Origin: a virus
Lineage: Duplodnaviria; Heunggongvirae; Uroviricota; Caudoviricetes
Direction: 5' to 3' (one strand)
Virus record (IMG/VR): IMGVR_UViG_2648501669_000026
Length of the DNA: 12,061 bases
The position numbers were made by a program, and so were the translations under genes. Under the pieces are notes generated by a model. The model saw only the letters and a program-made list of their open reading frames with translations. It was not told the origin of the DNA and ran no database searches. Below, in pieces: positions 1-9,670 of the stretch; positions within the stretch are counted from its first letter, which is position 1, and every line of letters starts with the position of its first letter.

Positions 1-1041
1 ATGGCATTACCGTTAAGGGATTATTATCCAGTTACCCGCGCCGCGAATTTACTTGGCTGTGAAGTGAACGATTTGTTCCACTGGGCGAGAAGGGGGTATA
101 TAGAATTATATGCGTATATTGATTCGGCTTGTGGTGTTGTTCACATGCATGAGCTTGATTATTTTCTCCCATTTATTGATCAAGAGGTGAGGGGGTGGGT
201 TAAATCGTTGCAAGAAGAATCTTTACGGGCTGAACTGGATGATTTTGTGGATGAAAAAATCAACAGAACAATGGGCGTTTTTTGTAAGTTAAATTACCTG
301 AAAGAAGAAAGAATATACTTGTACTCTCTTTTGAACTTTCTGGCTAAAGGATGGGTTAATACGGGCTTCTGCTGGTTAAAAAATCTTAAAAATGAAGCCC
401 GGAAGAGTGTCGAAGATGCCTATTATTTCGAGGATGTATGCGCCGAACATTCTTTTAATCGTGATAGCGAATATATTGCAGAAGTGGGCGGTTTTTTTTC
501 TATTGATTCTCATAATATACTTGAAGATATTGAATTAAATGGATGTTGTATTTGTTCTGGTGAAAATTTTGAAGGTGTATATAGCGGGTTGTCTGTTTTT
601 CTTCCTCAAAGCAATAATATAAATCTAAACAAAAATAACCTGTTTTTATTCAAAGATGATTTTATCATTCTTAATGATTTCTCTTCTGAAAAAGAAGGTG
701 ATACAGGAGAGCAATTGAATAAAAAATATTTATATGGCTATGATATGGAGTCAATATATATTCAATTGAACGAGAAGAATACATTCTTTCAACCCTGCGA
801 TGAGTCGATTAGTAGACAAAATGAGCATAAAAAAGAATTAAACCCTCAGCTTGATAAAAAAACGCGAGTATCCAAAGCAGAAAGAGTATTTATACAATTG
901 GCAATAAAAGAACATTACCACGAGTTTATAGACAGTCCGGGAACCATTGCCAATATATTCACCGCCTTGTCTAAAAAGCATGAAAGCCCTTTCGATTTCG
1001 ATAAAAGCACCATAGGCAGGTGGATTAAAACCGCTCGCTAA
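1..1041 (+). CDS. Hypothetical protein; N-terminal excisionase/MerR-type helix-turn-helix fused to an AT-rich body of unknown function. May be 5'-truncated by the window edge.
   Basis: 346-codon open frame from position 1, stop TAA 1039..1041. Residues ~8-35 (YYPVTRAANLLGCEVNDLFHWARRGYIEL) match the HTH_17/excisionase pattern. GC is about 40-47% in the first ~180 nt and about 23-35% in the rest (hand counts of 60-nt blocks), against about 50% in neighbouring genes. No family recognised for the body. Confidence 0.6.
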   Translation: MALPLRDYYPVTRAANLLGCEVNDLFHWARRGYIELYAYIDSACGVVHMHELDYFLPFIDQEVRGWVKSLQEESLRAELDDFVDEKINRTMGVFCKLNYLKEERIYLYSLLNFLAKGWVNTGFCWLKNLKNEARKSVEDAYYFEDVCAEHSFNRDSEYIAEVGGFFSIDSHNILEDIELNGCCICSGENFEGVYSGLSVFLPQSNNINLNKNNLFLFKDDFIILNDFSSEKEGDTGEQLNKKYLYGYDMESIYIQLNEKNTFFQPCDESISRQNEHKKELNPQLDKKTRVSKAERVFIQLAIKEHYHEFIDSPGTIANIFTALSKKHESPFDFDKSTIGRWIKTAR

Positions 1042-1095: not shown

Positions 1096-1167
1096 TCTCC
1101 TTCTTGCTTTGTGCGGATTGCCTGGGGAAAAATCATTCCCGAAAAGCTCAGGATACGGGAGAAAAAC

Positions 1168-1479
1168 ATGATACAGCGCATATTCATTCCACCAACTCCA
1201 GAACAACGCCGAGCCATACTCGCTGAGTATGGTTTTGACTACGAAGAACGCATCAGGGAAGACACGTGTAAAAAGATGACCACGCTTTCACGTTCCCGGC
1301 GTTGGGAACTGGAGGCGATTGGCGCTTTCCCTTCCCGCCACTCTTTGGGGCGTTGTTCGTGTACTTGGCTATTAAGCGATGTTTTATGGTGGTTGCGTAA
1401 CCCGCCAACTATTGCCGAGGCAAATAATCCGCATGAAAACGCCAAAAAGAAAAAGAGAGACGCTGATTTACTGGAGTAA
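1168..1479 (+). CDS. alpA: AlpA-family (Phage_AlpA-type) HTH transcriptional regulator with a ~35-aa N-terminal extension
   Basis: ATG 1168 is preceded by GGGAGA at 6-nt spacing. The C-terminal half (MTTLSRSRRWELEAIGAFPSRHSLGRCSCTWLLSDVLWWL) fits the AlpA signature LSRSxxxxxxxxGxFPxxxxLGxxxxxWxxxxVxxWL. A GTG at 1111 is a less likely alternative start. Confidence 0.7.
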   Translation: MIQRIFIPPTPEQRRAILAEYGFDYEERIREDTCKKMTTLSRSRRWELEAIGAFPSRHSLGRCSCTWLLSDVLWWLRNPPTIAEANNPHENAKKKKRDADLLE

Positions 1480-1484
1480 CATTT

Positions 1485-2360
1485 ATGGAAAACACAATCA
1501 CGGTATTAACACCCGTTTTTAAAAACTGCCCGGAAATGACCACGATTGCATCGTGGCCCCGTAGTTTTGTATATCAAAAGGGACAATCTGAAGTCTCTTT
1601 GGTTATTCGTCTGATTGATATCATTGCATCAAAATACATGCACAGACACGCCGAGGAATATTGCGATATTACAGGGTATTGCCTGCCGTTAGTGCATAAA
1701 ATCAGTGATGAAGAGATGCGGGATATTGCGGAAGGTTGCGATATTGCCATTACACGCATCCGGCAAAAAATCCGCGAAGCAGAAAATAAAGTGACTGCTC
1801 AGGAAAATAAAATCAGCGAATTGCGTAACGCTCAGTTACAGCCCACGTGTGCTGATAACCCTTATGGTGATCGGTATTCAGTAAAAGACGTTATCGAGCA
1901 TGAAATGCGTCTGCTTGAAAATGAGAAACGGAATTGCGAAAAGACACGCGCTGTCTGTGAGCAGGCTATACGCCTTATTGGTACGGGGAAAAACCTTTCT
2001 CATGATGGCGGTAATGCGTGGATTTTTGCCGCTTCGTTTGACGGACTGGAGCCGGAAACAAATCGCCGTATCAATATTTATAAAGAGATTATTTCGGCTG
2101 TCAGTGCGATCGTCACTTTACGCAATGAAGAAATTAAGCACATTCCTTATTCAGTAATGGCTAAATACAACCATTTACGGCAGGAATATATTAATGATGC
2201 ATTACGTACTCTGACGAAGCATTATTACAGCAACGGCAGTGAAACCATCCGCCATGCGATGACGCTACAGGAATACACCGGAATAAGTATGCCACGAATT
2301 GAACGGGATGCGGCGACCGCTTTGCTGTCTGTACATACCGAAAAGAAAGATATTGTTTAA
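1485..2360 (+). CDS. Hypothetical 291-aa protein with a central coiled-coil; capsid-scaffold-like only by position and size
   Basis: ATG 1485 lies 5 nt after the alpA stop, with GGAG 8 nt upstream. Heptad-like charged segment IRQKIREAENKVTAQENKISELRNAQLQ. No family recognised; it does not match my recollection of P2 GpO. Confidence 0.55.
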   Translation: MENTITVLTPVFKNCPEMTTIASWPRSFVYQKGQSEVSLVIRLIDIIASKYMHRHAEEYCDITGYCLPLVHKISDEEMRDIAEGCDIAITRIRQKIREAENKVTAQENKISELRNAQLQPTCADNPYGDRYSVKDVIEHEMRLLENEKRNCEKTRAVCEQAIRLIGTGKNLSHDGGNAWIFAASFDGLEPETNRRINIYKEIISAVSAIVTLRNEEIKHIPYSVMAKYNHLRQEYINDALRTLTKHYYSNGSETIRHAMTLQEYTGISMPRIERDAATALLSVHTEKKDIV

Positions 2361-2370
2361 GGGGAAATGT

Positions 2371-3423
2371 ATGTTTTTTAATATTAATGACCTGAAAGAT
2401 AAAGCCGGAAGCGTGCTTGAAAATATCAATATTTCATCTCCAGCGGTGAACGAAAATGAAACTGACATTAATAGCGCGCTTGCAGAAAAAGATCTTTACG
2501 CACGCATCAGTGCATACACACAAAAAAATCCGTTTGTGCATTTTATTTCGCCCTCTAACTGGCTTTCCGGGCAAATAAAATACCTGTCAGTTAATCCGCA
2601 TCAGTCCGCTATTAACCTTATTGGGGATGCGCGCTTATCCACCGGACGCGCAGAGGAAGGACGCTTTAGCCGTGCCATGGATATTAAAGGCTCTCCGATT
2701 GAATGCTATGAGATGGACTCATGCGAATATCTCGACTGGATTAACTTGGTTGTGATGGCCAATGTGGCGAATGACGACAAAAACCGCGATGCACTGCTGG
2801 GGATTTTGTGTGGCTATCTGACCAGCAAAATTTATCTGGACGATCTGCGGATTGGCTTTAACGGCAAGTCAGCGGCAACCTTCACCACACCGGACACCAA
2901 CCCGAACGGCGAGGATGTTGCGCCCGGCTGGCATGAAATTGCCAGGAAGGCAAGCGAAGGACGACAGATTATCAGCGATGCCATTACGCTGGGCGCAGGT
3001 GGTGATTTTCCGGGGGTAGATGCACTGGCGCAGCATCTGATTAAAACGAAAATTGCCGCACAGTGGCAGAACGATCCACGCCTTGTGGTGATGGTGGGAT
3101 CAGAACTTGCAGCTGCCGAACGTCTGCGTCTTTTCAGCACCGCAAACGGCGCAGGAGATACCGAAGCCGCCAGCGCATGGGGAAGCACCATTGCCGGGCA
3201 TTTTGCCTTTGTGCCACCGTTTATGCCGGGTAAACGTCTGGCTGTGACCACACTCCCGAACCTGCTGATTAACATCATTGAAGGCTCTTACCGCACAGAG
3301 TTCGATATGAACAAAGACACCAAACGCCTGAACATGCGGGCATGGCGTCATCAGGGCTACGGGCTGGCGGATGTGAATCTTTACGCGGCAGTGGATGAGG
3401 GCGCGATTACGCTTAATCCGTGA
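2371..3423 (+). CDS. Putative P2 GpN-family major capsid-like protein (tentative)
   Basis: ATG 2371 with AAGGGG 5-6 nt upstream; the ORF-track start at 2299 overlaps the preceding gene and is rejected. Collinear motifs GFNG, NP-x3-DVAPGW, GAGGDFPGVDAL and DPRLVVMVGSEL match P2 GpN as I recall it (GFNG, DVAVGW, GKGGDYASLDAL, DPDLVVIVGRQL). Size 350 aa versus 357 aa for GpN. Based on memory only. Confidence 0.55.
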   Translation: MFFNINDLKDKAGSVLENINISSPAVNENETDINSALAEKDLYARISAYTQKNPFVHFISPSNWLSGQIKYLSVNPHQSAINLIGDARLSTGRAEEGRFSRAMDIKGSPIECYEMDSCEYLDWINLVVMANVANDDKNRDALLGILCGYLTSKIYLDDLRIGFNGKSAATFTTPDTNPNGEDVAPGWHEIARKASEGRQIISDAITLGAGGDFPGVDALAQHLIKTKIAAQWQNDPRLVVMVGSELAAAERLRLFSTANGAGDTEAASAWGSTIAGHFAFVPPFMPGKRLAVTTLPNLLINIIEGSYRTEFDMNKDTKRLNMRAWRHQGYGLADVNLYAAVDEGAITLNP

Positions 3424-3633: not shown

Positions 3634-3817
3634 GTTTGACAGCCTGATTGTTAGAGCGGGTAGCCGCTATATTTCCGTAATGCGGTTTTTTTGTGCCCGT
3701 AATTCCACCCTACCCCGTATTATGGCGGGGCGTAATGGGGGAGCCTTTGCGCTCGCTGGTTTCTCTAACGCCAGTCTGTCAACCCTGTTACGTCCCGCCA
3801 CCATGTTTGACAGCGTG
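3634..3817 (+). promoter_or_regulatory. Untranslated leader with a 13-bp repeat triplet, P4 seqA/seqB/seqC-like
   Basis: GTTTGACAGCCTG (3634..3646) and GTTTGACAGCGTG (3805..3817) are direct repeats, 12/13 identical. CAGTCTGTCAACC (3772..3784) is an imperfect inverted copy (11/13 pairing). A short hairpin plus T7 run sits at 3680..3700. No SD-supported ORF between 3465 and 3856. Confidence 0.3.
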
Positions 3818-7704: not shown

Positions 7705-8706
7705 ATGTCGATCAGAAAGATGGATGATGGGCGATGGCTGCTCGATATCAGGCCACAAGGGGCGTACGGCAAACGGATACGTAAAATTTTTGTCAGGAAA
7801 GGGAGTGCAGAGGCCTTCGAACAATATATTTTACAGAATTTCCATAACAACCCATGGCTGGCTAAACCTGCTGATCGGCGGCGATTATCAGAGCTGCTTG
7901 ATACATGGTGGATGCTTGATGGCCGTAACCAGGCTTACGGCGATACCTACAGGATCCGGCTGGAGAAAGTGATTCGTGAAATGGGAGATCCGCGCGCCAG
8001 CCAGATGACGCAAAAATTTATGCTTGAGTATCGGTCAGAGAAATTACAGGCCGGCTTAATGCCATCCAGCATTAATCGTGACTTGTGCGTTCTGTCTACC
8101 ATGTTCACGGTGCTGATTGAAGCAGGGGTCTTTCACAACCCGAACCCTGTGCGCAGTATACGCAAGCTAAAAATTCAGAATACAGAGATGGCCTTTCTTT
8201 CTGATGATGAGATTGAACGGCTTCTTGAGCGACTGGAGGGGGATGCGCGTCGTGTTGCCATTCTGTGTCTTTCTACTGGTGCCCGATGGAGTGAAGCATC
8301 GGAACTACGTGGAGAGCATATCGTTGGCAACCGTGTGACGTTTTTTAACACCAAAAACGGAAAATCCCGCTCGGTTCCTGTGGCGGATTCGGTCGTGCCG
8401 CTGATTAAAACCCGTCGGACGGGGTTGTTGTATCAGGTTGATTATCTGGAGTTCCGGGAGATTCTTCAGGAGGTTAAGCCGGATTTGCCGAAGGGGCAGG
8501 CTACGCATGTTATGCGTCATACATTTGCCACACACTTTATGATGAATGGTGGGAATATCGTTACATTACAACGGATTCTTGGACATGCGACTATCCAGCA
8601 AACGATGACTTATGCGCATTTTTCTCCCGACTATCTGGCGGATGCCATGAGGTTTAACCCGATAGCTAACATGGCATTCACTGAACAAAAAGAGCCAGCA
8701 GAGTAA
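7705..8706 (+). CDS. int: Tyrosine recombinase / integrase, P2 Int-like
   Basis: 333 aa. Catalytic-domain motifs AILCLSTGARWSEA, HVMRHTFATHFM and LGHATIQQTMTYAHF; N-terminal DGRWLLDIRPQG...GKRIRK. Close to P2 Int in length and motifs as I recall it. ATG is 2 nt after the primase stop and shares the SD AAGGAGGGGG. Confidence 0.92.
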   Translation: MSIRKMDDGRWLLDIRPQGAYGKRIRKIFVRKGSAEAFEQYILQNFHNNPWLAKPADRRRLSELLDTWWMLDGRNQAYGDTYRIRLEKVIREMGDPRASQMTQKFMLEYRSEKLQAGLMPSSINRDLCVLSTMFTVLIEAGVFHNPNPVRSIRKLKIQNTEMAFLSDDEIERLLERLEGDARRVAILCLSTGARWSEASELRGEHIVGNRVTFFNTKNGKSRSVPVADSVVPLIKTRRTGLLYQVDYLEFREILQEVKPDLPKGQATHVMRHTFATHFMMNGGNIVTLQRILGHATIQQTMTYAHFSPDYLADAMRFNPIANMAFTEQKEPAE

Positions 8707-9415: not shown

Positions 9416-9670
9416 GTGCGCAGACAGAAAGCGCGGTGTTTTTGCTGTGGTGAGCGCGCAGTGATTGAAAAGACCGTCTGGAAAGATGATCGGTTTGCTG
9501 ACGTGTATTACCGTTGCAAGCGTCTTGAGTGCGGACATACCTGGGTAATGAATCTGACCTACTCGCACACGCTGACCCCCAGCGGACTGGAGAACGGCGT
9601 GTTGAAGCTGTTGATCGAACGAATGCGCCCGGAGGAAAAACAAATGGCGCTGGAACTACTACAGGCCTGA
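9416..9670 (+). CDS. Ogr/Delta-family zinc-finger transcriptional activator-like protein
   Basis: GTG 9416 with GAGGTG 5 nt upstream. C-x2-C, 22 residues, C-x4-C (CFCCGERA...CKRLEC), the same cysteine spacing as P2 Ogr as I recall it. 84 aa. Confidence 0.7.
   Translation: MRRQKARCFCCGERAVIEKTVWKDDRFADVYYRCKRLECGHTWVMNLTYSHTLTPSGLENGVLKLLIERMRPEEKQMALELLQA

Follow-up and report, generated by a model that had tools for sequence, protein, structure and literature searches.

The Stl repressors are encoded beside int, upstream of the activating and excision operon, and combine a conserved DNA-binding end with a divergent body in proteins of 250-380 amino acids (aa). In phage immunity cassettes, such as lambdoid imm or the P2 C repressor with its two repeats about two helical turns apart, a repressor is inherited together with its operators. 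Stl is the master repressor of Gram-positive phage-inducible chromosomal islands (PICIs); whether Gram-negative PICIs have a global repressor is unclear, and AlpA acts as an activator in one characterised E. coli PICI (PMC6092414). The Gram-negative integration zone has been described as consisting only of int and alpA (PMC10111431). We analysed a stretch of 12,061 nucleotides (nt) of Caudoviricetes DNA (IMG/VR record IMGVR_UViG_2648501669_000026, hereafter the window) that opens with a third, always-present gene of this zone, apparently overlooked so far, which we call X.

From comparative and structure-prediction evidence we propose, with moderate confidence, that X is a sequence-specific regulator of P4/PICI-like phage satellites whose basic C-terminal domain would read two palindromes just ahead of the alpA promoter region, gene and sites moving between islands as a specificity cassette. 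X is more likely such a type-specific DNA-binding regulator of the island than anti-phage cargo, the role favoured by a first-pass annotation of the same DNA. Of the readings compared, the one with most support is the fallback of that annotation, a repressor-like island regulator. There is no settled account of how satellites in Gram-negative bacteria are kept silent and detect their helper, and X offers a concrete candidate for type-specific control of induction. Islands sharing one chromosomal site may fall into compatibility or immunity groups for which the cassette would account.

The SaPI (Staphylococcus aureus pathogenicity island) Stl repressors and the phage immunity cassettes appear to be the closest functional analogues of X. 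Like Stl, X lies beside int at the head of the regulatory region in all loci examined, is of similar size and joins a conserved end to a divergent body. Unlike Stl, with which it shares no sequence or fold match, it is co-directional with int and alpA and has its sites between its stop codon and alpA, whereas stl is divergent from str. The divergent body is only compatible with a repression relieved by a helper protein in the manner of Stl. With the immunity cassettes X shares a sharply bounded divergent block in which a regulator gene and adjacent repeated sites lie between near-identical flanks, and its sites, like the P2 C repeats, are two helical turns apart. They differ in lying upstream of the presumed -35 element and not over the core promoter; moreover, the protein is unrelated to repressors of the cI, C or Cro type, and the island also has an RNA immunity element. 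The features of the region are as follows (GC, guanine plus cytosine; pLDDT, predicted local distance difference test).

1-1041, plus strand: gene X, always the central gene of the int-X-alpA module, whose product belongs to a family without a name (from its open reading frame, family, synteny and purifying selection).
22-225, plus strand: predicted winged-helix domain of MerR/excisionase-like type at the N-terminus (aa ~8-75), net acidic and almost unchanged across the family.
60-1130, no strand: exchangeable 'specificity cassette', approximate extent from nucleotide identity profiles, comprising most of X and the intergenic sites.
352-690, plus strand: divergent acidic alpha/beta body, aa ~118-230, the lowest-GC part (AlphaFold2 pLDDT 80-92).
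697-861, plus strand: low-confidence, length-variable linker, aa ~233-287 (pLDDT <50 at aa 233-236 and 246-287; gappy alignments).
874-1038, plus strand: C-terminal domain of three helices (AlphaFold2), aa 292-346, basic and with FDKSTIGRWIK as its last residues, a candidate DNA-recognition domain.
1059-1097, no strand: two self-palindromic sites 21 bp apart, their geometry shared in 10 of 14 loci; also an RNA hairpin.
1104-1133, plus strand: weak promoter-like elements for alpA, seen by eye: TTGCTT (1104-1109), an 18-nt spacer and AAAAAT (1128-1133).
1137-1161, plus strand: TCCCG and CGGGA arms of a short inverted repeat that spans the ribosome-binding site of alpA, with weak covariation (four pairs, one compensatory).
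1168-1479, plus strand: alpA, the downstream gene proposed to be under X control (PF05930 and PHROG 2790).

A fixed gene family between int and alpA

The window starts on the ATG of X, whose open reading frame of 346 codons (346 aa) ends with the TAA at 1039-1041. The first-pass annotation allowed for a partner hidden upstream, and the 98%-identical locus of strain M15 shows it to be an integrase of the P4 type, with Arm-DNA-bind_3 and Phage_integrase domains. In that locus 3 nt separate its stop codon from the X ATG, with an AGGA Shine-Dalgarno sequence for X inside the 3' end of int; across loci the distance from the int stop codon to the X ATG is 3-21 nt. On the other side, the next gene is an alpA (Pfam PF05930, E 4.7e-6; PHROG 2790, E 3e-30), as the annotation had read it. 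The island is inserted between gcd and hpt and runs int, X, alpA, a 291-aa open reading frame, a P2-family capsid homolog, an Icd-like region, small open reading frames, a toprim primase, a second recombinase-like gene and an Ogr/Delta zinc finger.

A homolog of X directly follows a P4-type integrase and precedes alpA in every locus with a readable flank (25 of 25), so that the check suggested by the annotation, a search for homologs in the same slot next to alpA in related islands, was positive in all loci read. The module was seen in eight E. coli islands, in eight Salmonella or metagenome islands and in distant members that have little in common besides the N-terminus and occupy other integration sites, the Salmonella islands occupying gcd and two other chromosomal sites. 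The latter, beside a YcaO gene and an aminotransferase gene (L024, L026), indicate that X is not confined to gcd/hpt. The same order is kept around distant relatives of 252-297 aa, found in other bacteria and on a Klebsiella plasmid.

Gene X itself is rare, 98%-identical copies being present in 2 of 5,426 complete E. coli genomes. Its family comprises 140 clusters at 50% identity in an exhaustive hidden Markov model search (E<=1e-3), against 3 clusters with a word-indexed homolog search and 5 with a very gappy 116-sequence alignment. A 21-member profile retrieved 56 clusters at 90% identity, nearly all from Salmonella enterica and every one annotated 'hypothetical'; no homolog was found in phage genomes. 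A contig scan matched a single locus, a 12.7-kb contig labelled 'MAG: Bacillota bacterium' (MAG, metagenome-assembled genome; L011, QAKE01000006.1), with open reading frames of 430 aa, 363 aa (the X homolog) and 105 aa. The Bacillota label is probably a binning error, since the other members all come from Gammaproteobacteria.

Sister islands match the window at ~92% from alpA onward and not at all across 1-1126, homology resuming at 1127-1182. Their int-alpA slot is filled by a 349-354-aa protein with the same N-terminus, the motifs GGFF and (D/N)LF(I/L)xKxDF and a similar C-terminus. In the majority of distant members a 54-sequence profile aligns with the N-terminus as well as with the C-terminal third, which identifies X as one family with a divergent middle and not as a common head on foreign bodies. 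X is a genuine, previously unannotated protein family with a well-defined genomic role. The conserved head fused to an unrelated effector, as first proposed, finds no support, body and C-terminus being homologous across at least 140 clusters at 50% identity. The same holds for anti-phage accessory genes in a slot of changing content: this one family always occupies it, distant islands included, and PADLOC returned nothing.

Searches of X against the Pfam, NCBIfam, PADLOC (cut-off E<=0.1) and PDB-sequence libraries gave no match, and those against PHROGs only weak, non-significant ones (E 0.04-0.07). Isolated N-termini of 60 and 120 aa had no Pfam match at E<=1; Pfam searches with 116 family members and with isolated C-terminal domains, like PDB sequence searches with three X profiles, yielded noise only. 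The family thus adds to those lacking a Pfam, NCBIfam or PADLOC model. The body was first called unrecognisable, which is correct as far as library matches go; within the family it is nevertheless homologous and carries conserved motifs. We found no description of the gene, or of satellites at gcd/hpt, in the literature searched. Two known genes are positional analogues: P4 cII (sce7726 family), which directly follows int and ends at a terminator, and CP4-57 yfjH, which lies between intA and alpA but on the opposite strand. Homology of X to cII or YfjH was rejected (hhalign probability 0.2% and 0.9%).

Exchange of X and the paired palindromic sites

Int and AlpA are 88-100% identical among islands whose X proteins are only 30-38% identical. 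Islands M15 and A36 share 97% identity in Int, 88% in AlpA, 97% in the primase and 30% in X; for two Salmonella islands (L008 and L009) the figures are 100% for Int, 100% for AlpA and 38% for X. Identity profiles were compared for these two pairs and for E9 and JP538. From int into the first ~60-100 nt of X (to codon ~20-35) the DNA is 92-100% identical; identity then drops to ~40%, and is back to 93-98% some 25-40 nt before the alpA ATG. Between E9 and JP538, X and the intergenic region form the sole divergent stretch in 6.5 kb.

The gene is also internally mosaic, to judge from the alleles of A36 and CFSAN: aa 1-50 and 296-354 are nearly identical (proportion of synonymous differences, pS, 0.05-0.24) and the middle is not (pS ~0.6), the pattern expected if termini and middle recombine separately. 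Together with the identity profiles, this mosaicism points to old, divergent X alleles shuffled by recombination inside a fixed frame. The ratio of nonsynonymous to synonymous substitution rates (dN/dS) is 0.25-0.35 in three informative pairs, indicating purifying selection. Pervasive positive selection was not seen: no segment of the informative pairs reaches a dN/dS of 1, and the single value above 1 comes from 8 substitutions. As every allele is full length and the gene is constrained, the pseudogene or gene fragment envisaged by the annotation was rejected. Its description of a modular, horizontally swapped gene holds well, given the contrast between X and its neighbours, the sharp block boundaries and the internal recombination. 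Over the 13.6-18.2 kb of loci L008 and L009, the primase modules also differ (DUF927/Zn_Ribbon_Prim against Toprim_2, 24% identity), as does the second recombinase (49%), so that the islands are mosaic at several modules and not only at X.

Gene X has 35.8% GC, whereas the window as a whole has 46.5% and the genes near X 43-55%, in agreement with its initial description as AT-rich, and its body is enriched in E, L, K, N, S, F, I and D, much as first noted (N, K, I, F, D and E). Composition does not change in one step at codon 60, where the break had been placed. GC is 41.7% over codons 1-60, 38.3% over 61-160, 28.6% over 161-280 (nt 481-840) and 40.4% over 281-346, so the AT-rich body stands and the trough lies at codons 161-280. 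This profile of richer ends and a poor middle is common to all 13 X alleles collected. The start of the coding sequence, conserved and richer in GC, is part of the conserved flank, which explains the pattern that had been read as a fusion.

The 12-bp perfect inverted repeat reported after X is present but extends to 13 bp (1059-1071 / 1084-1096), and actually consists of two self-palindromic 11-15-mers 21 bp apart. Site 1 has its core at 1062-1072 (GCTTAATAAGT); the core of site 2, at 1083-1093 (GCTTATTAAGC), lies within a perfect 19-bp palindrome (1079-1097). Each arm of the repeat is itself palindromic, a property not needed for a terminator stem. Across 14 loci, 19 perfect palindromes of at least 10 nt follow the X stop codon, compared with a mean of 3.9 and a maximum of 11 in shuffled sequences. 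An exact pair 21 bp apart, start to start, occurs in 10 of the 14, in four site sequences: GCTTAWTAAGC, GTCTTAATAAGAC, GCTAAWTTAGC and AGTTAGSCTAACT. A fifth type (AGTTAAGCTTAACT), in locus L002, has its second copy 22 bp away. The sites lie 20-56 nt past the X stop codon and their sequences are found nowhere else in loci of up to 31 kb. In the A36 and CFSAN alleles the hairpin is lost and one palindrome is kept.

At the level of sequence, site type co-varies with X and not with AlpA or Ogr. X proteins ending in ...T(I/V)(S/G)RW(I/M)K accompany CTTAWTAAG sites, those ending in ...TITNWLK accompany CTAAWTTAG sites, and the C-terminal 'CPL...K(R/M)L(L/I)GK' type pairs with AGTTAG.CTAACT sites. 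AlpA, on the other hand, is identical between islands with different sites, and Ogr/Delta is 96-99% identical between L008 and L009.

Between the sites and alpA, the CTTGC and AAAAT of the promoter-like elements are conserved across alleles. In loci L001-L017 the equivalents of the repeat over the alpA ribosome-binding site read CCCCC / GGGGG, CCTCC / GGAGG or TCCCG / CGGGA and bracket 14-18 nt. Their consensus fold is weak (-2.15 kcal/mol); the repeat may form an anti-Shine-Dalgarno hairpin that blocks AlpA translation from read-through transcripts.

Domains of X and the explanations for its role

An AlphaFold model built with 54 homologs reached a pLDDT of 77 and a predicted template modelling score (pTM) of 0.63; it was used in place of a model from 4 sequences with a pLDDT of 33. 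The N-terminus forms a strand-helix-helix-hairpin unit at aa 8-48, followed by helices to about aa 116. The predicted fold of this winged helix is MerR/Xis-like, and its best structural match is CbpM. The only conserved motifs of the body are GGFF (nt 487-498) and NLFLFKDDF (nt 637-663). The three C-terminal helices (292-305, 313-326 and 335-345; pLDDT ~90) form a domain of several types across alleles. The C-terminal 58 aa carry a net charge of +3 to +5 in most alleles (0 to +5 over 13), whereas the remaining protein is acidic, with runs of D and E in the N-terminus or body of some alleles. Neither a fold nor a sequence match was found for the body, and the C-terminal domain shows no fold match and no homology to known domains; a relationship of this domain to AlpA was rejected by hhalign. 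Foldseek returned no significant match for full-length X in PDB and BFVD, and the combination of domains is not seen in the solved structures searched.

X resembles AlpA, Vis and excisionases in the predicted fold class of its N-terminus, its genomic neighbourhood and a helix-turn-helix sequence pattern. It departs from AlpA and the excisionases (about 60-110 aa) in matching neither PF05930 nor HTH_17, in its 346 aa with two further domains, and in being followed by a true alpA. Compared with MerR, it lacks a Pfam match (full protein, N-termini and 116 members), its domain is acidic, and there is no sign of a long coiled-coil dimer helix leading to an effector pocket; the candidate palindromes (1059-1097) lie upstream of the -35-like element (1104-1109) and not in a 19-20 bp spacer between -35 and -10.

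We infer from this arrangement how X may work. The protein would be made together with the integrase, its ATG following the int stop codon so closely and its Shine-Dalgarno sequence lying inside the end of int. Dimers would bind the two self-palindromic sites through the basic C-terminal domain, and bound X would control transcription into alpA, the activator of the satellite cycle. X most likely keeps alpA shut or insulated in the resident island; this sign is favoured because X seems co-expressed with Int and AlpA is the satellite-cycle activator (PMC6092414). The fast-diverging acidic central body would be a candidate signal-receiving or oligomerisation part, and the invariant N-terminus may have a conserved partner, either a protein (Int, AlpA or RNA polymerase) or a site on the DNA. 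The cassette that passes between islands, made up of body, C-terminal domain and sites, would give specificity types comparable to those of immunity regions. A bolder version, which we put forward only tentatively and regard as rather doubtful, makes X a Stl-like helper-sensing switch of undescribed, capsid-gene-carrying P4/PICI-like satellites of E. coli and Salmonella. The body-plus-operator cassette would then decide which helper phage or co-resident satellite switches the island on, through a new family with a MerR-like head and a novel basic DNA-reading tail.

Several observations weigh against a DNA-binding regulator. No known DNA-binding family was recognised by sequence in the 116 members or in the isolated N- and C-terminal domains; the predicted N-terminal winged helix is net acidic, and CbpM binds protein, not DNA. 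Four loci have one site or none, and the co-variation of site and C-terminus is confounded by their physical adjacency on the DNA. As RNA, the sites also form a very stable hairpin, which belongs to a fold of -28 kcal/mol (z -3.6) and has a pyrimidine-rich tail behind it, and for this reason the palindromes may act at least partly as an int-X terminator. A consensus scan called no sigma-70 promoter at the alpA promoter-like elements. If the promoter seen by eye is right, the sites would be centred near -52 and -73, a position better suited to an activator or a roadblock than to a classical repressor. Finally, a protein repressor is not strictly needed, since the island carries an immunity RNA of the C4/CI type.

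Part of this evidence would suit a fast-evolving anti-phage or anti-helper effector encoded next to the integrase, with the downstream repeat as nothing but its terminator. X is AT-rich and extremely divergent, its ancient alleles are exchanged by recombination, its acidic body has no known fold, a hairpin and pyrimidine-rich tail follow its stop codon, and the main defence hotspot of P4-like satellites adjoins the integrase (PMC13586616). We consider an effector unlikely, however, for a slot that never holds unrelated genes and is filled by one family even in distant islands. X is under overall purifying selection and has no PADLOC match, no partner gene varies alongside it, P4's own post-int gene cII is unrelated to it, and a terminator does not explain the 21-bp spacing of self-palindromic units. 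The constant position could instead reflect a service to the integrase, X being a large directionality or architectural factor at the attachment sites, or controlling int expression. The short distance to int, the Shine-Dalgarno sequence inside it, the conserved N-terminal coding part inherited with int and the predicted Xis-like fold all agree with such a factor, to which we nonetheless give little weight. AlpA, the usual excisionase/regulator, is already present in the islands; X has 3-5 times the size of known directionality factors, and most of it varies while Int is constant. Its N-terminal domain is acidic, and the allele-specific palindromes lie at the alpA end and not near the island boundary. 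A search for attachment-site repeats of the island gave only 12-14-nt matches.

The acidity of the N-terminus and body, with D/E runs in some alleles, would fit a protein-binding modulator. Its MerR-like N-terminus would bind a protein in CbpM-CbpA style and its acidic body would serve as a decoy or anti-repressor, the palindromes being bound by another factor or acting as RNA structure only. This appears quite improbable: it gives no account of the basic C-terminal domain or of the co-varying sites, and no other island protein examined varies with the sites.

Other modules of the island

A C4 antisense RNA (Rfam RF01695, 72.8 bits, E 5e-13), of the P1 c4 / P4 CI immunity type, is encoded at 3718-3805 on the plus strand, inside a stretch annotated 'Icd-like protein' in sister islands. 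The island thus has an RNA-based immunity beside whatever X does.

The 291-aa open reading frame at 1485-2360 (plus strand), which has no family match, is followed at 2371-3423 (plus strand) by the homolog of P2-family major capsid proteins (PF05125, E 5e-44, below the NCBIfam equivalog cut-off). This pair directly follows alpA in the window island, A36 and STEC313; in M15 and the Salmonella islands an equivalent pair (236-241 aa and a 393-423-aa capsid homolog) lies at the far right end. The satellite accordingly has a capsid-like gene of its own, in a module that has moved.

A second tyrosine-recombinase-like gene (7705-8706, plus strand; 333 aa, Int_N plus Phage_integrase) starts 3 nt after the 895-aa toprim primase and is kept in that position in every full island seen. 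The Ogr/Delta-like zinc-finger gene at 9416-9670 (plus strand; PF04606, E 1e-10) suggests that the island may communicate with P2-like late promoters. In sister islands, a Hok/Gef toxin is annotated just downstream of it on the opposite strand.

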